From Octopus vulgaris (Eukaryota), in NCBI GenBank assembly GCA_951406725.2, contig OX597823.1:61194001-61258000 (forward strand): DNA of 64,000 nucleotides. The letters are read 5' to 3'. The notes beneath the pieces were generated by a model, which saw only the letters and a program-made list of their open reading frames with translations, ran no database searches and was not told where the DNA came from. The position numbers and the translations under genes were made by a program. Position 1 is the stretch's first letter. Every line of letters begins with the position of its first letter. Positions 6,881-48,840 of the stretch are shown here, one piece after another.

Positions 6881-8008
6881 CTCTAGAATAAGGCACCATT
6901 GTATCCACAGCTACACTGGTAGCACAACTGCCTTGAAGGCAGTCAGACTAGGAAGTATGACAACTCCAAGCATAAACCCCTTCACTGTTAGTGAATGCTT
7001 GCACAGAAACAAAAGCTGAGGGATAAAACCCTAACAGTTGATTGTGTTGGAAGAGAACTTGAGGTGGCCCACCAACTTTATTTTTCATCCCAAAGAGAGC
7101 ATGAGCACAATATAAGGTGGTTGGAGCCTGGGCCCTTAGCTTTCATCTATGAAGTTGGAAATATCCAATCATTCACAATATCTTCTTCATCATCATTAAA
7201 TATCTGGCTTCCAAGCTGGCATGGATTGGGTGATTTAACCAGATCTCATGTTAGAGGACTGCACCAGCCCAAGACCAGTGTCTATTATGGCATAGTTTCT
7301 ACTGCTAGATACCCTTCCTAACACTGACCAATTTGCTGAGTCTACTGGGTTATTTTGCATGTCACTACCACTGGTGATAATCATCTTGTAACTTGTAGGG
7401 TTAAGGTCCTTAAAGTAGCTTTGATATATTTCCCCCCAGTTATATTGCTGGTATTCCTGTCCAGTGTCACTAATTTCTCACTATTTCTATAGAGAGTATG
7501 TCGCTTCTAAGCCTAGCCAACTCAAGTGAATATGCTGTTCTGATGAAGTCCAACATGATCGAAACATAATGTCCATTATTTTTCCCCACATGTTGATTCT
7601 AAAGAATTCGTTTATTACATTGTCTTTATTTCTTAAATGTTGAGATTAGCTGATATTTGTTGAGTTATCTCTCTTGTTTGGGGATTTCAGATTTTAATCT
7701 CTCTTTTGAGAGAGATTTTGACTTTTAATTGCAATAATGTCAGTTACTCAAAATTTCTTCTTTCAACTCACTACATTACGTATTTGAGACTTTTCACTTT
7801 ATTTGTGTGTGTGTGCATGTGTTTGTGTGTGTACATAGATATACATACACATATATTATATGTATGTATGTGTATGTGTATTATATATATATGTATATAT
7901 ACATACACACACACATATAATATAATATTCATACATATGTATATATCATATACATACATACAATATACATATATATGTATTGAATACATACATATGATAT
8001 ACATACAC

Positions 8009-11000
8009 ATTCATACACTGTTACGAAAATTTAACCTTTTTTAGGCTACTTTCAAGCCTTTGCCATAACTTGATTTATCTTCCTATCTCTCTCTCTACAA
8101 TATTTAACCGTAGGCTGCCTCAAGCCGTAATCCCATCTTTTCCCATCTTTCAGCCATTGGCGGTCTTCTTTTTCCTCCCTTCTTCTTCATATGCTAAAAC
8201 TTGAAAACCGCCATTACTATTACGATTCTGCAATTTAAATTCCCAGTTCAACTTACTTTCTTCTTCAATTTCAACTCCCGCTCGATGACCGCAGCAAGTT
8301 CTTAAAAATTTATCTTACTATTTTTTTATTCGTTGTTACTACGTTTATTCATACACTGTTACGAAAATTTAACCTTTTTTAGGCTACTTTCAAGCCTTTG
8401 CCATAACTTGATTTATCTTCCTATCTCTCTCTCTACAATATTTAACCGTAGGCTGCCTCAAGCCGTAATCCCATCTTTTCCCATCTTTCAGCCATTGGCG
8501 GTCTTCTTTTTCCTCCTCTTCTTCTTCATATGCTAAAACTTGAAAACCGCCATTACTATTACGATTCTGCAATTTAAATTCCCAGTTCAACTTACTTTCT
8601 TCTTCAATTTCAACTCCCGCTCGATGACCGCAGCAAGTTCCTAAAAATTTATCTTACTATTTTTTATTCGTTGTTACTACGTTTATTCATACACTGTTAC
8701 GAAAATTTAACCTTTTTAGGCTACTTTCAAGCCTTCGCCATAACTTGATTTATCTTCCTATCTCTCTCTCTACAATATTTAACCGTAGGCTGCCTCAAGC
8801 CGTAATCCCATCTTTTCCCATCTTTCAGCCATTGGCGGTCTTCTTTTTCCTCCCTTCTTCTTCATATGCTAAAACTTGAAAACCGCCATTACTATTACGA
8901 TTCTGCAATTTAAATTCCCAGTTCAACTTACTTTCTTCTTCAATTTCAACTCCCGCTCGATGACCGCAGCAAGTTCTTAAAAAATTTATCTTACTATTTA
9001 TTTTATTCGTTGTTACTACGTTTATTCATACACTGTTACGAAAATTTAACCTTTTTTAGGCTACTTTCAAGCCTTCGCCATAACTTGATTTATCTTCCTA
9101 TCTCTCTCTCTACAATATTTAACCGTAGGCTGCCTCAAGCCGTAATCCCATCTTTTCCCATCTTTCAGCCATTGGCGGTCTTCTTTTTCCTCCTCTTCTT
9201 CTTCATATGCTAAAACTTGAAAACCGCCATTACTATTACGATTCTGCAATTTAAATTCCCAGTTCAACTTACTTTCTTCTTCAATTTCAACTCCCGCTCG
9301 ATGACCGCAGCAAGTTCTTAAAAATTTATCTTACTATTTTTAAATTCCCAGTTCAACTTACTTTCTTCTTCAATTTCAACTCCCGCTCGATGACCGCAGC
9401 AAGTTCTTAAAAATTTATCTTACTATTTTTAAATTCCCAGTTCAACTTACTTTCTTCTTCAATTTCAACTCCCGCTCGATGACCGCAGCAAGTTCTTAAA
9501 AATTTATCTTACTATTTTTTTATTCGTTGTTACTACGTTTATTCATACACTGTTACGAAAATTTAACCTTTTTTAGGCTACTTTCAAGCCTTCGCCATAA
9601 CTTGATTTATCTTCCTATCTCTCTCTCTACAATATTTAACCGTAGGCTGCCTCAAGCCGTAATCCCATCTTTTCCCATCTTTCAGCCATTGGCGGTCTTC
9701 TTTTTCCTCCTCTTCTTCTTCATATGCTAAAACTTGAAAACCGCCATTACTATTACGATTCTGCAATTTAAATTCCCAGTTCAACTTACTTTCTTCTTCA
9801 ATTTCAACTCCCGCTCGATGACCGCAGCAAGTTCTTAAAAATTTATCTTACTATTTTTTATTCGTTGTTACTACGTTTATTCATACACTGTTACGAAAAT
9901 TTAACCTTTTTTAGGCTACTTTCAAGCCTTCGCCATAACTTGATTTATCTTCCTATCTCTCTCTCTACAATATTTAACCGTAGGCTGCCTCAAGCCGTAA
10001 TCCCATCTTTTCCCATCTTTCAGCCATTGGCGGTCTTCTTTTTCCTCCCTTCTTCTTCATATGCTAAAACTTGAAAACCGCCATTACTATTACGATTCTG
10101 CAATTTAAATTCCCAGTTCAACTTACTTTCTTCTTCAATTTCAACTCCCGCTCGATGACCGCAGCAAGTTCTTAAAAATTTATCTTACTATTTTTTTTAT
10201 TCGTTGTTACTACGTTTATTCATACACTGTTACGAAAATTTAACCTTTTTTAGGCTACTTTCAAGCCTTCGCCATAACTTGATTTATCTTCCTATCTCTC
10301 TCTCTACAATATTTAACCGTAGGCTGCCTCAAGCCGTAATCCCACCTTTTCCCATCTTTCAGCCATTGGCGGTCTTCTTTTTCCTCCTCTTCTTCTTCAT
10401 ATGCTAAAACTTGAAAACCGCCATTACTATTACGATTCTGCAATTTAAATTCCCAGTTCAACTTACTTTCTTCTTCAATTTCAACTCCCGCTCGATGACC
10501 GCAGCAAGTTCTTAAAAATTTATCTTACTATTTTTAAATTCCCAGTTCAACTTACTTTCTTCTTCAATTTCAACTCCCGCTCGATGACCGCAGCAAGTTC
10601 TTAAAAATTTATCTTACTATTTTTTTATTCGTTGTTACTACGTTTATTCATACACTGTTACGAAAATTTAACCTTTTTTAGGCTACTTTCAAGCCTTCGC
10701 CATAACTTGATTTATCTTCCTATCTCTCTCTCTACAATATTTAACCGTAGGCTGCCTCAAGCCGTAATCCCATCTTTTCCCATCTTTCAGCCATTGGCGG
10801 TCTTCTTTTTCCTCCTCTTCTTCTTCATATGCTAAAACTTGAAAACCGCCATTACTATTACGATTCTGCAATTTAAATTCCCAGTTCAACTTACTTTCTT
10901 CTTCAATTTCAACTCCCGCTCGATGACCGCAGCAAGTTCTTAAAAATTTATCTTACTATTTTTTATTCGTTGTTACTACGTTTATTCATACACTGTTACG

Positions 11001-11814
11001 AAAATTTAACCTTTTTTAGGCTACTTTCAAGCCTTCGCCATAACTTGATTTATCTTCCTATCTCTCTCTCTACAATATTTAACCGTAGGCTGCCTCAAGC
11101 CGTAATCCCATCTTTTCCCATCTTTCAGCCATTGGCGGTCTTCTTTTTCCTCCCTTCTTCTTCATATGCTAAAACTTGAAAACCGCCATTACTATTACGA
11201 TTCTGCAATTTAAATTCCCAGTTCAACTTACTTTCTTCTTCAATTTCAACTCCCGCTCGATGACCGCAGCAAGTTCTTAAAAATTTATCTTACTATTTTT
11301 TTTATTCGTTGTTACTACGTTTATTCATACACTGTTACGAAAATTTAACCTTTTTTAGGCTACTTTCAAGCCTTCGCCATAACTTGATTTATCTTCCTAT
11401 CTCTCTCTCTACAATATTTAACCGTAGGCTGCCTCAAGCCGTAATCCCACCTTTTCCCATCTTTCAGCCATTGGCGGTCTTCTTTTTCCTCCTCTTCTTC
11501 TTCATATGCTAAAACTTGAAAACCGCCATTACTATTACGATTCTGCAATTTAAATTCCCAGTTCAACTTACTTTCTTCTTCAATTTCAACTCCCGCTCGA
11601 TGACCGCAGCAAGTTCTTAAAAATTTATCTTAATATTTTTTATTCGTTGTTACTACGTTTATTCATACACTGTTACGAAAATTTAACCTTTTAGGCTACT
11701 TTCAAGCCTTCGCCATAACTTGATTTATCTTCCTATCTCTCTCTCTACAATATTTAACCGTAGGCTGCCTCAAGCCGTAATCCCATCTTTTCCCATCTTT
11801 CAGCCATTGGCGGT
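8009..11814 (+). repeat. Tandem array of ~338-339 bp monomers (10 full + 1 partial)
   Basis: Monomers start (ATTCATACACTGTTACG) at 8009, 8347, 8685, 9024, 9541, 9879, 10218, 10646, 10984, 11323 and 11661 and are near-identical. Monomer 4 has two extra 89-bp subunits and monomer 7 has one. Confidence 0.98.
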
Positions 11815-11828
11815 GCGCCCGCCCCCCA

Positions 11829-11952
11829 CCCCCACCACCAATACCGTTGAACACTGTTCTCACCCCCACCACCAATACCGTTGAACACTGTTCTCACCCC
11901 CACCACCAATACCGTTGAACACTGTTCTCACCCCCCCCCCACCACCAATACC
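11829..11952 (+). repeat. 34-bp tandem repeat (~3.5 copies) in the RTE 5' UTR
   Basis: CCCCCACCACCAATACCGTTGAACACTGTTCTCA at 11829, 11863 and 11897, plus a partial copy. Confidence 0.95.
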
Positions 11953-12040
11953 AGTATACCCCGTTCTCTCCATCTACACCGGATACGCCTTACTCATCTA
12001 CACTGGGTACGCCCTACTCCCTCCTCCTCCCCCCCACTAC

Positions 12041-12352
12041 CCCTTCTCCTCATATGCTTAAGACAAGCTGCTAGCGCCATAGCTCATCAACTGCCCACCG
12101 ATCTTACGCTTCCTCCTGACACTGCCTCAATCTGACCATCCCCTTTTAGTACCCTCCTGCCTCGTCAATCCGACCATCCCTTTTTAGTACCCTTCTCCTC
12201 ATATGCTTAAGACAAGCTGCTAGCGCCATAGCTCATCAACTGCCCACCGATCTTACGCTTCCTCCTGACACTGCCTCAATCCGACCATCCCCTTTTAGTA
12301 CCCTCCCGCCTCGTCAATCCGACCATCCCCTTTTAGTACCCTCCCGCCTCGT
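12041..12352 (+). repeat. 149-bp tandem duplication with ~38-bp subrepeats in the RTE 5' UTR
   Basis: CCCTTCTCCTCATATGCTTAAGACAAGCTGCTAGCGCCATAG... at 12041 and 12190; subrepeat TCAATCCGACCATCCCCTTTTAGTACCC occurs four times with minor variants. Confidence 0.93.
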
Positions 12353-12576
12353 AATATCCTACGTTTTTATTTCTTAGGAACCTACACCAACCCTTCCTGC
12401 CATCGTTCCTCCTTACCCCAACCTTCCCCACTGGTTGCTCCCCTATATTACCCGCCTCAACTGGACCCCCCTCCCCAACTCAACTCTAGAATATCTGTAT
12501 TTCTTTCCTCTACCTAATTACGTTACTCAGTGACGATAACAAATGTCCACTGCTAACACCAGCTCCTGCCCACGGC

Positions 12577-15500
12577 GTGGTCAGGTTGGAAGAGAGATCA
12601 AAAGAAAAATACCACGAAAACTATCACCACCACTACAACCCTCCTCTTCTCAGGCGCCGAATCCCCCTGTCCCCCCACATCTCCTTCCCAGTTTTCAGAG
12701 TTGGCACTATCAATGTTGGTACATTGACAGGCAAGTCTAGTGAGATTGTAGAGATGCTAGAGAGAAGACAGGTTGATGTATGCTGCATACAAGAGGTAAG
12801 ATGGAGAGATGCTTCGGCTAGGGTCCTCACGGGCAAGGCACTTAGATACAAACTCTACTGGCAAGGTAACGCGGAAGGTGTAGGGGGTGTAGGCATTCTC
12901 CTTGCGGAGGAATGGGTGGATAAGGTCATAGAGGTTGTCAGGGTTTGTGATAGAGTGCTTAAGCTCAGGTTGGTCCTACAGAGTGGCACAGCTATGATTA
13001 TCTCAGCCTATGCCCCACAAGCGGGACTACCAAATGATCAGAAGGACAACTTTTATGATACCCTTCTGCAGGCTACTTCAAAGACTAGTAACAAGGACCT
13101 CATCTTTGTAGGTGGAGATTTTAACGGGCATGTTGGGCGGGAATCGGGTATCTTCACTGGGGTACATGGTGGATATGGTATTGGCACCAGAAATGATGAG
13201 GGAACTAGACTACTGGAATTCTGTGATGCATGTAACCTTTCAATCTGCAACACTAACTTCAAGAAGCCAGTCTGCCACCTTATAACTTATCAGTCAGGAG
13301 ACTCCGCTAGCCAAATAGACTTCATCCTCACCAGACAACGGGATGCAGGGTTGCTCTTGAATACAAAGACCCTCCCGGGTGAAGAATGTATCCCTCAGCA
13401 TAGACTAATCATCAGTGACTTTAAGCTTGAGGCCAGAAGGACTCCAAGAAACAAACCAATCCAGAAAAGAAGGATTTGGAGGCTAAAGAACCCTTCGCAT
13501 GGTCAGAAATTTAGGGACATACTCATCAAGAAATTTGATGAGAGGGAAGAGGAGCTTCAGACGTCAGACATAGAAGGTAGCTGGGAATTCCTACGGGACA
13601 GCTTGTTGAGTGCCACAGACCAAGTTTGTGGATGGTGCAAAGTCCCTTCCAGACCTAGAATTACGTGGTGGTGGAATAGTGCAGTAGATAAAGCCATCTG
13701 TGAAAAGAGACGGGCCTGGAAAGCCTGGAAGGATGGGGGCAGCAGGGAACTGTACCAGATAGCCAAAAGGGAGGCTGGGCGGCAGGTATACATTGCCAAA
13801 GATGTAGCAGAAAAGAAGAAGTTTGCCAATGTCCAGCGTCGCGAGGATCAAAGAGCTGAAGTATTTCGGATTGCCAGACAGTGTGTCAGAGAAAATAGCG
13901 ATGTTATAGGAGAGAAATGTGTCCGCATGGATGATGGGGCACTTGCTTTTACTACTAGTGAAAAGAAAGAGGCTTGGAGAAGCCATTATGAAAGACTGCT
14001 AAATGAGGAGAATGAATGGGAGGAGGAGAGCCTGCCAAATGTTGACCCAGTAGAGGGACCAGCTACCCGAATAGACAGCTCCCTTGTAGATAAGGCAATT
14101 AAGGATATGAAACCAGGCAAAGCCCCTGGCCTATCAGGAATCACTGCTGAGATGCTTAAAACAGCTGGCTATGTGGGCCATGCCATAGTCACCCGCATTG
14201 TAAACCAGGTAGTTCACAATGGAGCCATACCCAATGACTGGTGCAGCAGTACCATAGTCAACTGCTACAAGGGTAAGGGTGATGCTCTAGATAGAAATAA
14301 CTACAGAGGTATCAAACTGTTGGACCAGGTGATGAAGGTCTCAGAGAAGGTCATAACCAATCTCATTAGGGAGAGAATTTGTTTAGATGAAATGCAGTTC
14401 GGTTTTGTACCAGGTAGAAGCACCACTGATGCTATATTCCTGGTCCGACAACTGCAGGAGAAGTACCTAGCTAAAGATAAACCCCTCTACATAGCTTTTG
14501 TAGACTTGGAGAAAGCCTTTGACAGGGTTCCCCGTTCCCTTATCTGGTGGTCGATGCGGAAACTGGAGATTGAAGAATGGCTAATAAGGGCTGTACAGGC
14601 TCTATACAGAGAGGCTGTTAGCAAGGTTAGGATTGGCAACGAATATAGTGAAGAATTCCGAGTAGAAGTAGGTGTGCACCAGGGCTCAGCCCTCAGTCCC
14701 CTTTTGTTCATCATAGTCCTTCAAGCAATAACAGAGGAATTCAAAACGGGATGCCCCTGGGAGCTCCTCTATGCCGATGACCTAGCTCTCATAGCAGAAT
14801 CACTACCGGAACTAGAAGAGAAATTTCGGGTATGGAAGCAAGGGTTGGAATCAAAGGGCCTTAGAATAAATGTAGCAAAGACCAAAGTATTAGTAAGCAG
14901 CAAGAGGTACTCAACACACATCCCCTCGGGTAGGTGGCCCTGCTCAACCTGTAGGAAAGGTACAGGTAGAAACTCCATAAGATGCACCCAATGTAAGTTA
15001 TGGACACATAAGAGGTGCAGCAACATTAAAGGGAAATTAACAGATAAGATAGCTTTCATGTGCGGCAGATGCACAGGGACAATAGACACAACAGACACTC
15101 AGAAAACAGATTCCATCACACTCCAGGGAGAGAAACTAGAAGTAGTTGATAGTTTCCGCTACCTGGGAGACCAAGTTAGTAGCGGAGGTGGATGCACAGA
15201 GAGTATCACCACTAGAATACGAATAGCCTGGGCAAAGTTCAGAAAGCTCCTACCCCTACTGGCAACAAAAGGCCTCTCCCTCAGAGCAAAAGGTAGATTA
15301 TATGATGCATGTGTGCGAACTGCCATGCTTCACGGTAATGAAACATGGGCTGTGACTGCAGAAGACATGCGTAGACTTGAAAGAAATGAAGCTAGCATGA
15401 TCCGCTGGATGTGTAGTGTCAGTGTGCACGCAAAACAGAGTGTAAGTATCCTGAGAGAAATGCTGGATATAAGAAGCATCAGATGTGGTGTGCAAGAGCG

Positions 15501-15882
15501 ACGCTTGCGATGGTATGGTCATGTGCTGCGGATGGATGAAGAGAGATGTGTGAAGAAGTGCCACTCCCAAACAGTTGAAGGTATCAGGGGGAGAGGTAGA
15601 CCCAGGAAGACATGGGATGAGGTGGTCAAGCATGACCTCAGAGCATTGGGCCTCACTGAGGCAATGGCGAAGGACCGAGATCTCTGGAGATATGCTGTGA
15701 CTACAAAGACCCGGGCTGCTTTCTGCAGCAATTCCACATACCCCCTACCCATTCTAAGTACCCCCCTACCCATTCTAAGTACCCCGGATCCCCAAAGTAC
15801 CCCGGATCCCCAAAGTACCCTGGATCCCCAAAATACCCCGATCCCCAAAGTACCCCGGACCTCGTTGCCCCCGTGCCGCTGA
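12577..15882 (+). CDS. RTE-clade polyprotein: APE endonuclease + reverse transcriptase + PHD-like finger
   Basis: APE motifs GTINV, IQEVRW, SAYAPQ, GDFNGH, QIDFIL, QHRL. RT motifs NYRGIKLL, QFGF, FVDLEKAFD, GVHQGSALSP, LYADD (YADD at 14770). RTE-type C-terminus RLRWYGHVLRM and RGRGRPRKTW. No internal stops; true start codon uncertain. Confidence 0.96.
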   Translation: MVRLEERSKEKYHENYHHHYNPPLLRRRIPLSPHISFPVFRVGTINVGTLTGKSSEIVEMLERRQVDVCCIQEVRWRDASARVLTGKALRYKLYWQGNAEGVGGVGILLAEEWVDKVIEVVRVCDRVLKLRLVLQSGTAMIISAYAPQAGLPNDQKDNFYDTLLQATSKTSNKDLIFVGGDFNGHVGRESGIFTGVHGGYGIGTRNDEGTRLLEFCDACNLSICNTNFKKPVCHLITYQSGDSASQIDFILTRQRDAGLLLNTKTLPGEECIPQHRLIISDFKLEARRTPRNKPIQKRRIWRLKNPSHGQKFRDILIKKFDEREEELQTSDIEGSWEFLRDSLLSATDQVCGWCKVPSRPRITWWWNSAVDKAICEKRRAWKAWKDGGSRELYQIAKREAGRQVYIAKDVAEKKKFANVQRREDQRAEVFRIARQCVRENSDVIGEKCVRMDDGALAFTTSEKKEAWRSHYERLLNEENEWEEESLPNVDPVEGPATRIDSSLVDKAIKDMKPGKAPGLSGITAEMLKTAGYVGHAIVTRIVNQVVHNGAIPNDWCSSTIVNCYKGKGDALDRNNYRGIKLLDQVMKVSEKVITNLIRERICLDEMQFGFVPGRSTTDAIFLVRQLQEKYLAKDKPLYIAFVDLEKAFDRVPRSLIWWSMRKLEIEEWLIRAVQALYREAVSKVRIGNEYSEEFRVEVGVHQGSALSPLLFIIVLQAITEEFKTGCPWELLYADDLALIAESLPELEEKFRVWKQGLESKGLRINVAKTKVLVSSKRYSTHIPSGRWPCSTCRKGTGRNSIRCTQCKLWTHKRCSNIKGKLTDKIAFMCGRCTGTIDTTDTQKTDSITLQGEKLEVVDSFRYLGDQVSSGGGCTESITTRIRIAWAKFRKLLPLLATKGLSLRAKGRLYDACVRTAMLHGNETWAVTAEDMRRLERNEASMIRWMCSVSVHAKQSVSILREMLDIRSIRCGVQERRLRWYGHVLRMDEERCVKKCHSQTVEGIRGRGRPRKTWDEVVKHDLRALGLTEAMAKDRDLWRYAVTTKTRAAFCSNSTYPLPILSTPLPILSTPDPQSTPDPQSTLDPQNTPIPKVPRTSLPPCR
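15739..15860 (+). repeat. 21-bp and 18-bp tandem repeats at the RTE ORF end
   Basis: CCCCCTACCCATTCTAAGTA twice, then about four copies of CCCCGGATCCCCAAAGTA; translated as PLPILST and PDPQST repeats. Confidence 0.9.
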
Positions 15883-16359
15883 CACGTTAAAATGCTCGAA
15901 TCCGATCGTGACGATGCCGGACCCTCCGGCCCCTGTGCAGGTGGCACGTAAAAAGCACCCAATCCACTCACGGAGTGGTTGGCGTTAGGAAGGGCATCCA
16001 GCCGTAGAAACTCTGCCAGATTCAGACTGGAGCCTGGAGCGGCCCCTGGCTTCCCAGACCCGGTCAAACCGTCCAACCCGTGCTAGCGCGGAAAGCGGAC
16101 GTTAAACGATGATGATGATGATGATGATACATACATATAATATACATACATATGTAATATACTTTCATATGTATGTATACATATGTATATATGAACACAT
16201 GTATGTTTGTATGTATGTGTATGTATGTGTATGCATGTGTGTGTGTCTATCTGTCTGTGTGTAATGATTTCTAAATCAAAATGTCAATATATATATATAC
16301 ACATATATAAGTAATTTCTGCTCCAACTTGAGAGTATATTTGGCTAGCTATGTCTCATC

Positions 16360-35767: not shown

Positions 35768-36037
35768 CACCATTTCTGTTGAAGAGCATAGGCTTGAAAT
35801 GTCAAAGACTTTTCCATTCTTCACAAGTGTCAAACAAACACACACCTATTTGTTTTGTTGTTCCCTCAACTATCTTCATCTTTTGTTTTCTGTATGTTTG
35901 ACACACACACACATATACATATATAAACTCACCAGCATCATATGTCTAGCAGTGGTGGGAGACCAAATACAAACTCACAAATACAAATATACGTGTATAA
36001 CATATATATATATGTATATGTGTATGTGTGTGTATAA

Positions 36038-36068
<31 letters not shown>

Positions 36069-36089
36069 CACTCACATATACATATTTAT

Positions 36090-36090
<1 letters not shown>

Positions 36091-36123
<33 letters not shown>

Positions 36124-39100
36124 CCAGTTCCAGCCTATGAGCTGTGGCCATGCTGGGGCACCGCCATTTGGTGTTGCTACTTGGTTTTACTTCATGGGGG
36201 CTTTCTAGCAACTGCTATTTGGTGCATGAGAGAGTTCGATGCAGCTGCCCTCATCTGCCCCTCCTGCCGTGAAGTTGGTTCATCTGGGACACCAGACAGG
36301 AAGAGATCCAGCTTCATTTTAAAGACATCTGTATCCACCCCATGCAGGTCTCTCAGGTTCTTCGGGAGGATATTGAAGAGCTGTGGGCCTCGGAAGCCCA
36401 GGCTATCACAGAATCTTGTCCTACATCTTGATGGCAGGTTTGGAGTCCTAGGCACCACGCAGTGGCGCCCAGTTCTGGCATTTGTGTAACTCTCGATGCC
36501 AAAGTTCAGGACACTTCCCTCCAGGATCTTCCAGATGTATATTATGGCATATCTTTCCCGCCTACGCTCCAGGGAGTATAATTTTAATCTCTTGAGTCTT
36601 TCCCAGTAGCTTACATTCTGCATAGAGGCTATCTTCTTTGTGTAGCTTCGTTGGATCGCCTCAAGTTCTGTGATCAACTTGACACTGGATGGTGACCATA
36701 GCTGAGAGCAATAGTCAAAGTGGCTTAGGACAAGTGTCTTCCAGAGGACCATCATGGTTTCTTGTTCTCTTGTTCTAAAGGTTCTAAGAATCCAGCCAGC
36801 CAGCCGTCTACATTTCACTGTCAGTTTAGCAACATGTACATGAAAGGTCGCGTCATCACTCATGTGAATACCCAGGTCACGCACTGATTGTGCCTCTGGG
36901 ATTGCAATCCCTCCGGGTCCAGTGTATTCGTTGGGTATTGCATTCAGTTTTGCATGCTGATAGTATAAAGCTTGAAACTTTCCAGCATTGAACTGCATGC
37001 TATTCTTTTCAGCCCACTTGTATATTTCGTCCAGCTCACATTGCAGGTTTTTAGTGTCCTCAGGGTTCTGTATTGCCTGTGAAACTTTTGTATCATCTGC
37101 ATAACTTGTGATCGTGGATCTCTGCGTGGCTGAGGGCATGTCTGAGAGGGCCATTATGAACAGTAGTGGTCCCAAAACAGTGCCCTGTGGAACACCACTC
37201 ATTATTTGCGTGTTAATGGAAGTGGCCCCATTGGCTACTACCACCTGACTTCTATTCTTCAGAAAGTCGTGAAGCCATTCTCCTAGTTTTCCAACTATGC
37301 CAAGATCACGCAACCTGTGACATATCATTCCGTGATCGACTTTATCGAAGGCCTTTGCGAAGTCGAGATATATGACTTCCACATTTGAGTGGTTGAGCAG
37401 TTGTTTCAGCACCCAGTCATAGTGCTGCAGGAGCTGAGTTAAGCAGCTTCTTCCTGGTCGGAAACCATGTTGGGTGTCAGGCAGCAAGTCATTTTCTTCA
37501 AGGAAGGTGATTAGTTTCCTTCTGACTATTCGTTCCATGACCTTGCTGATGTGTGAGGTCAGAGAGATAGGTCTGTAGTTCTTTGCCTCCGCTCTGCTAC
37601 CTCCTTTATGAATAGGGCATATTTTACCTTCCTTCAGTCCCCTTGGAAGTTTGCCAGCTGCAAGGAAGCTCTGAAAGAGGGACTGCAGTGGTCTTGCTAA
37701 GACTCTCTTACATACTTTTAGGAGGATTGCCGGGAATCCATCGGGGCCAGTAGCTGAGTCTATTTTCATTTCATCTATAGCCTTTATTACATCGTCTTCC
37801 TTTATCTCGATGTAACTTATCGTCGCCGCCTCTGATTCTATATCTGCAGTGGTAAAGAAGTCAGTTGGATTGCTGATTTGGAAATGCCCAAGGGGTGGAG
37901 TGAAAACACTCTTGAATTGTTCATTCAGTATTTCACTTACCCTCATTGGTTTTCCTGTGAGTGTGCCATCCTTTTCAAGGAGTGGCCCTATCCTACAGTG
38001 CACTGTAGCCGTTTCTTTGGCATACCTGTAGAAAGCTCTGGGGTTAGTTTTTATGTTGTCTATAGCCCAGGCTTCTTTGTCTGCTCTTTCCTTCTCATGG
38101 GAAAGTTGCAGACAATTTTCAATTTCCAACAGTTTTATTTTCAGGCGGGACTTTTCACTACTTTCAATTTGTTTGTTTAGGCGATTTGAAATTTTTGTAC
38201 GCCGTCTCATTAAAATTTTCCTCTCTCTGGGGATTTTGTTCTTGTGTACAGTGGCCTTTCTCTCTGGGACACATTTGTAGCATATGGCTTGCATTACAGA
38301 CATGAATTGTTGAAGTATCATGTCGATGTCCGGCGAGGAGAGACATTCAGGCCAGTTTTGTTTGAGGATCTCTTTCTCAATTTGTTTCCAGTTTGCCTTA
38401 TTGAAGTTCAAGCTGGAAAGATTCTGAGGGTTTCTTGTAGGCTGCATGTCCGTGCTCTCTTTTGGCCCGTACATGGTCAGCTCTACCATGTTGTGATCCG
38501 AGAGTAGTGTCGGTGTCACTTTCACATTATGGATGAGATCCATATTATTTGTGAAGCAGAGATCCAGTGTGTTACCTGCTCTGGTTGGTTGCAGTACTAC
38601 TTGCTCCATGTACAGGGTGTTGGTGAGGTTCAGGAGGGACCTCGCCTGTCCTCGTTCACATCTTGTCATTCCTGGGAGAGAAAGGCCCTCGGGCCATCTG
38701 ACATTCGGTAGATTGAAGTCTCCCATGAGAAGTACACTTATGTGTTGGTCTAATGTGGTTAGAACTTCTTCTATTTTTATAAGGCAGTCTTCGAACTTGC
38801 CCACATGGCTTGGGGCATCTGGAGGGCGATATGTAGCACACACAACTACATCAAGTTGCCTAATATGTACAATTAGTGTGTCACACACCGAGTTTGAGTA
38901 TGACAAAAGGACCTGGGGTGTGAGGTCCCCACGGATGTACATAGCAACTCCTCCATGACTCCTTTCTTTCCTGTCGGTCCGTAGTACAACATACTGTGGT
39001 ATGTGTAATTCCGCATCTGCTATGTCCGGTTTCAGATGCGTTTCTGTGAGTGCTATGCATAAGGCTTGATTGCATGCGACAAAGTCTCTCAGGAACGGGA

Positions 39101-41272: not shown

Positions 41273-41299
41273 TCCTAGCTGCTTACCCAATGTGAAAAC

Positions 41300-41495
41300 A
41301 TCATCGTCGTCATCATCCTTTCACGTTCATTTTCCATGCTTGCATGGGTTAGATGGTTTGACTAGTTTAGATGATTTAAATCGGAGAAATGCATCAGGTT
41401 CCAGTGTGATTTTGGCTTGGTTTCTACAGCCAGATGCCCTTCCAAATGCCAACCACTCTGAGAGTGTAGTGGGTGACTTTTACATGCCACTGACA
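41300..41495 (-). mobile_element. RTE 3'-end fragment with (GAT)n tail
   Basis: Reverse-complement homology to 15940-16128; weaker similar fragments at ~7185-7350, ~20440-20555 and ~44980-45150. Confidence 0.85.
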
Positions 41496-42620
41496 TGGAT
41501 TCTATTAGATGTCACCTCACCAGCACTAACCCCAGCAACGATTTCACTTGCGTTGATGAATCTTCTCAAGCAGAGCAAATTCCCAAAGGTCATGATCAGT
41601 TGTCATCGCTTCTGTGAGACTCTACATTCGAAGATCATGCTGCTCCACTTTGGCCCACGTCTTCTTGGCTTTACCTCTTTCACACGTTCAGAGATAAACA
41701 CACCCACACATGTACATGCACACACACACACATACACTCACACAAACACATTCACACACACACACACATGCAAATACAGTCACCAACACACACTCACACA
41801 AACACACATTCACACTCACACACACACACACACACACACAAAAATACAGAGTCACACACGCACACAAACACACATTTACACTCACACACACACACACACA
41901 CAAATACAGAGTCACACACACACACTCACACAAACACACATTCACTCACACACACACACACACGCGTGCGCACACACACAATGTGTGTAGATATTTTATT
42001 CAGGGGAGAGAGAGAGTGTGTGTGTGTTCTTTGGCAAGTATAGTGACTGAACTAAGGTAATATCTTAAGTGAAGTGAATGGCAATTACTGATTACTGATC
42101 AACTAGACTTCACTGAAGTAAATAACTAGAAATATAATGATACATATCCATACCCAAACACACAAACTCACACACACACACACACACACACACGTGCACA
42201 CAAACATGCACATAAACATAACTACAAAATTATACACAGGTGCAGGCAAGACACTGTGAGACAGCCTCCTTAATGTAAGTGGCATGATAATATGCACAAA
42301 TTCATGTAGAATATTTGGAAGAGTATCCGGGTGTAAAAAAAACTATCTAAGCTTAAATCATGACAGTAAAATCAATAAAAAAAAAATGTAACTGTTACAC
42401 AGACCTCTCGCTTTCTCTCACCTTTCTAGCTATCTATTTATATATATGTGTATATATACATATATATTCACTCACAAGCACACCAATATACACAAGGTCA
42501 TGTGTTTGCATGAAAATATTTAGAGCACATCTTACATGTAGTAGAATAAAAGATATAAACTTTAGAGACTAAAAACATATATTTCACATTTCATGGGTAT
42601 TTGACAAACTGGTTTTGCTT

Positions 42621-47612: not shown

Positions 47613-48840
47613 AAGCTATGGACACATAAAAGGTGCAGCAACATCAAAGGAAAATTAACAGAGAAGGTAGCTTTCATGTGCGGCAGATACACAGGGACAA
47701 TAAACACCACAGATACTCAGAAAACAGATTCCATCACTCGCCAGGGAGAGAAACTAGAAGTAGTTGATAACTTCTGCTACCTAGGTGACCAAGTTAGTAG
47801 TGGGGGTGGATGTTCAGAGAGTGTTACCACTAGAACAAGAATAGCCTGGGCAAAGTTTAGAAAGCTTTTGCCCCTACTGGTGACAAAGGGCCTCTCGCTC
47901 AGAGTGAAAGGCAGATTGCATGTATGTGAACTACTATGCTTCACAACAGGGAAACATGGGCCATGACTGTGGAGGACATGCGTAGGGTTGAAAGAAAGGA
48001 AGCAAGCATGATCTGCAGGATGTTTAATGTCAGTGTGCACACATGATAGAGTGTAAGTACTTGAGAGAAATGTTGGACATAAGAAGCATTGGATGTGGCA
48101 TGCAAGAGAGACGCTTGCATTGGTATGGTCATGTACTACGGATGGATGAGGAAAGATGTGTGAAGAAGTGCCACACCCAAACAGTTGAAGGAATCCGGGG
48201 TAGAGGTAGACTCAGGAAGACATGGGATGAGGTGGTCAAGCATGACCTTTGAATGTTGGGACTCACAGAGGCAATGACGAAAGACTGAGGACTCTCGAGA
48301 TATGCTGTAACTGCGAAGACTTGACAAATAAAGTGAGTTCACGGCTGTATTCTACACCAGTTTTGCATAACCAGCCCCAGCCCATTCAAAAGTACCTTGG
48401 ATCATAGGAATACCTGCTGTGCTTACCTTGGATCATAGGGCGACCTACTGTGCTTGAGGAGACCTGTTGAGACAAGTACGTCAACATCAAAATAAAAATC
48501 AAATGGAAATTGTTGTTGTCATATCCATGCCGGTGGCATGTAAAAAGCACCATCCAAGCATTGCCGATGCCGGAGCCACCTTGACTGGCTTCCATGCCAG
48601 TGGCACGTACAAAGCACCAGCCGATCATGGCCATTGTCAGCCCCCTCTGGCCCCTGTGCTGGTGGCATGTAAAAGCACCCACTACACTCACAGAGTGGTT
48701 GGCGTTAGGAAGGGCATCCAGCTGTAGAAACACTGCCAGATCAGACTGGAGCCTGGTGCAGCCTCCTGGCTTCCCAGACCCTGGTCGAACTGTCCAACCC
48801 ATGTTAGCATGGAAAACGGACGTTAAATGATGGTGATGAT
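47613..48840 (+). mobile_element. 5'-truncated, decayed RTE copy related to the 8-16 kb element
   Basis: Homologous to 14995-16128 from inside the PHD finger onward; frameshifts and stops; ends GGACGTTAAATGATGGTGATGAT; flanked by (TA)n. Confidence 0.93.

Follow-up and report, generated by a model that had tools for sequence, protein, structure and literature searches.

Tandem repeats at the 5′ end of a long interspersed nuclear element (LINE) are known mainly from the mouse, and this design is usually treated as a murine trait. Mouse L1 elements of the L1Md A, TF and GF types carry a variable number of tandem 5′ monomers upstream of a unique tether (PMC5381506, PMC6454616). The monomers have additive promoter activity, daughter copies are shorter than their parents and the 5′ ends are clustered (10.1101/2022.08.06.500894). 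How units are regained is considered an open question, although one promoter of 50 monomers has been ascribed to unequal crossing-over (PMC6454616). A 5′ module with promoter activity, the A-module, has been described for TRE5-A of Dictyostelium, whose derivative TRE5-A.2 moved in trans (PMC5391098). Elements of the RTE clade are typically compact, about 3.2-3.6 kb (PMC10294476), and microsatellites are named as one of their features (PMC9115989). One of them is RTE-2_OV of Octopus vulgaris, which has a single open reading frame (ORF) coding for endonuclease, reverse transcriptase (RT) and zinc finger, followed by a 3′ microsatellite (PMC9115989). Here we analyze a stretch of 64,000 nucleotides of the O. 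vulgaris genome (contig OX597823.1, C10:61194001-61258000; hereafter, the window) that contains a young LINE, likely of the RTE group, with a tandem array of about 338-bp monomers at its 5′ end. The array is a real, family-wide feature of this element and represents a variant of the mouse-L1-like design.

The array in the window consists of 10 full units and a 156-bp end piece, which start at positions 8009, 8347, 8685, 9024, 9541, 9879, 10218, 10646, 10984, 11323 and 11661. The full units are 98.5-100% identical to the first one over the aligned part. The final unit ends at unit position 156 and continues without a gap into the C-rich 5′ untranslated region (UTR), just as the initial annotation of this DNA had described. 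The uniform length given there (~338 bp) holds for most of the units but not for units 4 and 7 (517 and 428 bp), which are longer because an 89-bp piece is repeated inside both. The array and the element are enclosed together by a target-site duplication (TSD) of 24 bp with one mismatch. Within the window this 24-bp sequence occurs only at these two sites when at most one mismatch is allowed, and at one further site with three mismatches. The 9-bp TSD proposed earlier, ATACATACA, had to be abandoned, as the word is found 76 times on the + strand of the window; it forms the tail of the 24-bp match that takes its place. As for the proposed relationship between the array and the UTR, the alignment score of the monomer against the whole UTR was reached by 10 of 300 shuffles, and that against the 149-bp UTR unit alone by 63 of 300. 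Kinship of the monomer with the UTR repeat is therefore suggestive at best. The window monomer has 36% GC, 11 CpG dinucleotides and two occurrences of CCATCTT. It does not contain GCCATCTT, a word that is present in derivative monomers. No structured RNA is indicated in the monomer by folding (z 0.52), and all of its 16 Rfam matches fall far under the gathering score.

To what extent the array is tied to the element can be judged from searches of the 2.8-Gb assembly. Out of 261 candidates from the monomer search, 37 were scored, the window included. All 36 other loci run into the UTR of the element at or near unit position 156; 27 of them continue into the ORF (autonomous copies) and nine into a short derivative. 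When the region from the UTR to the ORF start was used as the query, 34 of the best 40 matches carried monomer sequence, while the remaining six break off inside the UTR or where it begins, one of them at an assembly gap. The exact monomer-monomer junction of the window type has 72 matches in the genome, every one in an element-attached array. A looser version of the junction has 516 matches. As many as 433 of these lie in the stretches that we fetched, where all arrays end in the UTR, and the remaining 83 lie outside them; no free satellite array was found among the arrays examined, which cover these 433 junctions. In two arrays, at C5:38.78 and C8:7.56 Mb, the derivative junction is located downstream on the same strand. 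The junction between the array and the UTR has 88 exact matches in the genome. These data show that the array belongs to the element and moves with it. The proposal that it is the element's own 5′ end is thereby upheld: in the loci examined the monomer always lies 5′ of this family, with variable copy number, and no satellite independent of the element was found.

Flank matches of 26 and 34 bp surround the 6-unit arrays in loci L060 and L046, and by a lenient criterion 68 of 96 5′ flanks qualify as dinucleotide microsatellite, mostly (AT)n. No allelic pairs were found among the fetched loci. The monomer-monomer joint is also present in contigs of the public runs X2, X10 and X12, and in run X16, from a second organism, with three letters between the units. 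That X2 and X10 are RNA runs is a guess. In both, depth is greater on the monomer than on the ORF, but we make no use of this difference: besides the uncertain label, depth summed over contigs does not measure expression. The deletion junction of the non-autonomous derivative has 173 matches in the genome; runs X12 and X16, which come from two organisms, show it as a loose end. Among relatives in metagenomes, 13 of 80 loci reach the N-terminus, 12 of them with less than 700 bp upstream; no long array was seen, which is uninformative with contigs this short.

Several individual loci deserve mention. At C11:53.94-53.95 Mb an autonomous copy and a derivative (L054 and L112) lie about 10 kb apart and share a ATCTATATCTAA minisatellite. 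The derivative array of L110 (C25:1-4865) extends to the first base of the contig, so that its length there is a lower bound; a position at a chromosome end is possible. L065 has its own 3′ end inverted upstream of its array (L065:2032-2739 in the oriented copy), and L070 contains an inverted monomer piece (L070:4659-4811, likewise oriented).

The number of units differs strongly across the family, from 0 to more than 70. The longest array of an autonomous copy has 41 units (14.2 kb, C4:69.4 Mb), the longest array of a derivative has 77 units (25.7 kb, C14:38.1 Mb), and further long arrays measure 7.5-12.6 kb. An array of 39.4 kb at C2:127.45 Mb was not relied on in view of its noisy distal units, type switch and unmatched flanks. 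Its distal 70 units (L093-L097, C2:127.45-127.47 Mb) stutter differently from unit to unit at a single spot close to the junction motif, which could be either consensus noise or template-switch scars. Five copies, including the one in the window, do not differ by a single substitution in 2704 ORF bases and have arrays of 157, 580, 916, 3806 and 14177 bp. Array length shows no growth trend with age in 52 copies (Spearman -0.20, p 0.15). The divergence between units (117 in total) is 0.3% within a locus vs 2.9% between loci.

Two kinds of observations bear on how the arrays grow. First, copies located on different chromosomes (L113, L116 and L193) share the order of units outward from the UTR, and so do the copies at C1:111.6 Mb and C2:119.2 Mb. 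Such sharing of unit order across chromosomes indicates that multi-unit RNA was copied. Second, the window array itself is rearranged. Units 6 and 8 are identical to units 9 and 5, respectively, and unit 7 combines the 5′ half of unit 10 with the 89-bp duplication of unit 4, which makes the run from unit 6 to unit 8 look like a recombinant between units 9-10 and units 4-5. This is one tandem duplication of a three-unit block. The junction of the 89-bp sub-repeat has three matches in the genome, all of them at the window locus, and therefore at least two successive rearrangements took place, either here or in a source copy outside the assembly. Because of the block duplication, growth of the array on DNA by unequal exchange or slippage is likely, and this is our first reading. 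At C4:69.4 Mb neighbouring units carry nested shared variants, which likewise suggest growth on DNA. In L033, L046 and L047 sub-units of 155-158 bp are mixed with full units in differing orders.

A possible function of the array emerges from older subfamilies. The first set that we considered consists of 20 copies at 87-97% endonuclease identity. The fixed junction between the array and the UTR is reached by 13 of the 20, and seven of these 13 have tandem arrays, the periods of older arrays being 86, 90 and nested 42/133/473 bp on homologous sequence. In L145 and L149 the unit contains ACTTCCGGT, then TATATAAA or TATTTAAA, and then, about 30 bases on, one more word. We take the first of these to be an ETS-like site, the second to be a TATA box and the third to be initiator-like. 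In a second set (the best 20 of 40 listed matches to the L149 UTR), the ETS-TATA block is present in 12 copies. Six of the 20 copies begin 0-16 bases before CACAGCGATG, which is positioned 42-53 bases after the TATA box, i.e. just downstream of TATA+30. If two loci seen before the prediction are excluded, five of 18 begin there (binomial p 0.0005 with a uniform null, 0.03 with a harsh null). Moreover, L230 starts in an upstream unit at the same base at which L226 starts in its sole unit, and it retains one whole promoter unit downstream of its 5′ end. The mouse-L1 trait of 5′ ends clustered at one monomer phase is thus seen in the older subfamily, though not in that of the window. The layout of the older monomer suggests a promoter of the upstream type that persists thanks to its tandem copies, and with this subfamily as its basis we consider a promoter role of the array fairly probable. 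The older promoter block has no matches in metagenome contigs. Arrays of an older 90-bp unit are found at C8:118.107-118.111 Mb (36 exact matches) and at C1:194.560 Mb (14).

In the young monomer, ATTTAAAT sits 45 bp before CCGCTCGATG, with the same spacing as for the TATA box of the older monomer. There are, however, a number of points that weigh against the promoter role or against growth on DNA. The ETS-TATA block has been lost from the young monomer. In the young family there is no clustering of 5′ ends, either for 96 ends (Rayleigh p about 0.07; about nine of these calls stopped early in irregular arrays) or for 49 arrays of at least 1 kb (p 0.86), and a 30-bp scan of them is not significant. 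A segment of the unit chosen by homology holds just 12 of 108 ends vs 6.4 expected, with a p-value of 0.026 that refers to a hand-compiled list and is not corrected for the excess of short arrays. In the older copies, the TATA box is degenerate in L141 and L142, a TATA-like word alone turns up in 26% of shuffled 435-mers, and the names of the promoter motifs are assumed labels. As to growth, four long arrays are nearly uniform (21 of 23, 28 of 32, 26 of 32 and 54 of 76 units are identical), which one-step reiteration or smoothing by the assembler would also give. A sharp start site in the young monomer was rejected, as the 5′ ends spread over the unit; dispersed starts and truncation of long RNAs would both give such a spread. 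The putative L1-like monomer-array promoter of the initial annotation thus gains support at the sequence level from the older subfamily but not from the young 5′ ends.

On balance, we favour a scenario that we credit with somewhat better than an even chance: a variable 5′ array is copied along with a young LINE and likely provides it with a series of reserve promoters. The promoter of the older unit would precede the site from which it drives transcription, and every jump would leave it behind if the RNA did not start farther out in the array. An RNA that does start there would include complete promoter units, so that tandem repetition would solve the problem. Reverse transcription would end at the start site or earlier, which may be why new arrays are observed at any length. 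Units lost in this way are likely regained when unequal exchange or slippage duplicates units locally in tandem, and the same process, sometimes running to tens of kilobases, would homogenise each array. In the young subfamily, with its ETS-TATA block deleted, starts are likely dispersed. The deletion derivative, which keeps the array, presumably borrows the protein.

The main competitor of this scenario is that RT builds the array at insertion. The complementary DNA would re-anneal to a homologous unit in the same or another RNA and be recopied until a random stop; in a variant, copying would proceed round a unit-sized circle. The event would take place at the RNA 5′ end or at a break. We regard this possibility, in either variant, as unlikely, even though a fair number of observations agree with it. 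The longest arrays are on the youngest copies, arrays of 23-76 units are almost uniform, 5′ ends occur at any phase, and many arrays consist of one proximal type and then a run of a second type. L049, L058 and L117 switch unit type in blocks, and both L049 types are also present at other loci; yet gene conversion or chimeric assembly may account for these switches. It is harder to reconcile with such building that the 89-bp junction found only in the window was itself block-duplicated and then changed in number, a history that a single pass could produce only if the assembly lacks the source copy. Mixed unit order is, in addition, inherited between loci, and no other joint inside the monomer is listed in the runs guessed to be RNA (X2 and X10). 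The earlier suggestion that the array arose by template jumping or by copying of a circular RNA stays a conjecture: sister insertions share their unit order, and the window calls for at least two rearrangements. Inheritance of multi-unit RNA followed by later duplication fits at least as well as template jumping, and as a growth mechanism we place duplication on DNA ahead of reiteration by RT. That RT itself writes arrays, looping over the monomer at insertion to produce a one-ended satellite of up to tens of kilobases, we thus hold to be doubtful. If it were true, a TATA-type promoter that no LINE should be able to keep would be renewed at each jump, and satellite arrays would be seeded directly by a LINE.

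Alternatively, the array might be a neutral variable number tandem repeat in the 5′ UTR, changing by slippage and having no role, with transcription supplied by host read-through or by one proximal promoter. The dispersed 5′ ends and the lost TATA block of the young family are consistent with this idea, as is the ease with which the 5′ region duplicates (at periods of 34, 86, 89, 149, 156 and 338 bp). It is nonetheless improbable in our view, since the 5′ ends of the older subfamily cluster behind a TATA box, once in an upstream unit, and since arrays have been kept across several subfamilies and in a derivative that lost 3.1 kb of the ORF. Finally, the array as a separate satellite or an assembly artefact is most improbable, and its being a chance neighbour of the LINE is already refuted: the assembly does under-call homopolymers, has gaps in some arrays and includes the noisy, type-switching distal 70 units of the 39-kb array, but the junction is fixed at 88 exact sites, no array among those examined is free, and the monomer joint recurs in public-run contigs (X2, X10, X12 and, with the three intervening letters, X16).

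Coordinates of the element and its parts are collected in Table 1. The ORF had been annotated as an intact AP (apurinic/apyrimidinic) endonuclease-RT frame. It is indeed free of stops and contains both domains, but the ATG at 12543 is out of frame in the assembly. In the 53 assembly copies the family ATG is in frame with the endonuclease 10 times and out of frame 43 times, and most of the frame differences fall in two runs of C, near 12662 and 12670. Contigs from public runs have one more C than the window assembly at each of these two positions. The out-of-frame ATG is probably an assembly or base-calling fault in homopolymers. A 65-codon upstream frame corresponds to the N-terminus of the family, out of frame. 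The PHD-like zinc finger lies between RT and the C-terminal part, and RT plus PHD is also seen in many distant relatives.

Table 1. Features of the LINE and its 5′ array, in window positions (UTR, untranslated region; TSD, target-site duplication)
Feature	Position	Strand	Remarks
Left TSD	7984..8007	+	24 bp, in (AT/CATA)n microsatellite; one extra C at 8008
5′ tandem array	8009..11814	+	Units are naturally delimited by the junction following CAGCCATTGGCGGT (position 156/157 in the phase of the initial annotation)
89-bp sub-repeat, three copies in unit 4	9250..9519	+	Junction unique to window locus in genome
89-bp sub-repeat, two copies in unit 7	10444..10624	+	Belongs to three-unit block duplication
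TATA-like word ATTTAAAT	11548..11555, also 8233-8240	+	Once per unit; candidate by sequence
Array-to-UTR junction, GCCATTGGCGGT then GCGCCCGCCCC	11801..11830	+	Fixed; kept in subfamilies down to 87% protein identity; presumably GC-box-like (our label)
C-rich 5′ UTR	11815..12542	+	Unique; 34-bp (x3.2) and 149-bp (x2) repeats
Stop-free frame, 1130 codons	12490..15882	+	AP endonuclease, reverse transcriptase and PHD-like finger
Stretch absent from non-autonomous derivative	12540..15690	+	Derivative retains array, UTR and 3′ end
Family start codon	12543..12545	+	Out of frame with endonuclease in window
AP endonuclease	about 12706-13365	+	Domain match
Reverse transcriptase	about 14293-14898	+	Domain match
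PHD-like finger	about 14941-15072	+	Scores below Pfam cut-off
3′ UTR	15883..16107	+	Diverged form common to many short dispersed repeats
(GAT)7 tail	16108..16128	+	
Right TSD	16127..16150	+	Overlaps (GAT)7 tail by 2 bases

The assignment of the element to the RTE group is likely, judging by its ORF layout and tail. As is characteristic of the clade, there is a single ORF with the AP endonuclease followed by RT and no separate ORF1. The short 3′ UTR ends in a microsatellite rather than in poly(A), and the (GAT)n tail is present in nearly all copies reaching it. The two ORFs and A-rich tail of the L1 clade are absent. The 4.3-kb element body plus arrays of 0-14 kb exceeds the usual RTE size, which is typical of the clade but not diagnostic. 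Searches in other animals returned 161 related proteins, the best of them 53% identical. These are mostly unnamed; one cluster bears the name ‘Craniofacial development protein 2-like’, which we take to stand for RTE/BovB-derived proteins.

Elsewhere in the window, positions 47613-48840 contain an older copy of the same lineage that is 5′-truncated but keeps its 3′ end (66-87% protein identity, depending on the segment), with the frame broken in places. Diverged copies of the element's 3′ end are present on the minus strand at 7180-7356 and 41299-41678, probably as SINE-like (short interspersed element-like) or truncated relatives. A 3-kb stretch at 36000-39000 has 45% GC and strand skew and does not match the RTE-like ORF; it is possibly another element on the minus strand.

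These findings place the monomer-array design in another LINE group, where the promoter is apparently of another kind. The genome contains dozens of nearly identical sister copies whose arrays range from 0 to >70 units; together with older subfamilies, they form a record of unit change and thus a natural data set for separating growth at insertion from growth afterwards. They also outline a route from the 5′ end of a LINE to satellite-sized arrays. In practical terms, consensus libraries miss the true 5′ end of an active family, and repeat libraries may hold its monomer as a satellite or an unknown repeat.

Among described elements of the same species, RTE-2_OV is similar in having a single ORF, the same domains and a 3′ microsatellite. 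Identity with it was rejected, as two of its primers have no match in the window at up to three mismatches. Neither ‘tandem’ nor ‘monomer’ occurs in the main text of the RTE-2_OV report (PMC9115989). A recent annotation of octopus repeats lists active RTE families, and such arrays are undescribed in the portion of that source considered here (PMC13282606). More generally, the literature covered, which excluded subscription papers and Repbase entries, gave no account of RTE elements with monomer arrays at the 5′ end.

With mouse L1 the family shares tandem 5′ monomers that vary in number, precede a unique UTR and move with the element, the C-rich UTR being the counterpart of the tether. The two differ in many other respects. 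The octopus element has a single ORF, a (GAT)n tail and (AT)n targets, and its protein is only distantly similar to L1 ORF2p (E 1e-26 over RT). Mouse monomers are CpG islands with the YY1 core GCCATCTT; those of the window do not have this core, being AT- and pyrimidine-rich and not CpG-island-like. Further differences are the putative TATA-type upstream promoter of the older unit, arrays of up to 14-26 kb, periods that change between subfamilies, and the fact that long arrays are most numerous in a derivative without the ORF. The A-module of TRE5-A is tandemly repeated, and the combination of a 5′ module with a non-autonomous derivative is common to TRE5-A and the octopus family. TRE5-A, however, has two ORFs, targets tRNA genes and belongs to another clade, and we know of no TRE5-A arrays of many kilobases. 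Finally, in Drosophila HeT-A a promoter located upstream of the start survives by means of the neighbouring tandem copy. HeT-A uses for this purpose the 3′ end of a whole upstream element, at telomeres, whereas the octopus family repeats the 5′ unit alone, at dispersed microsatellite sites.

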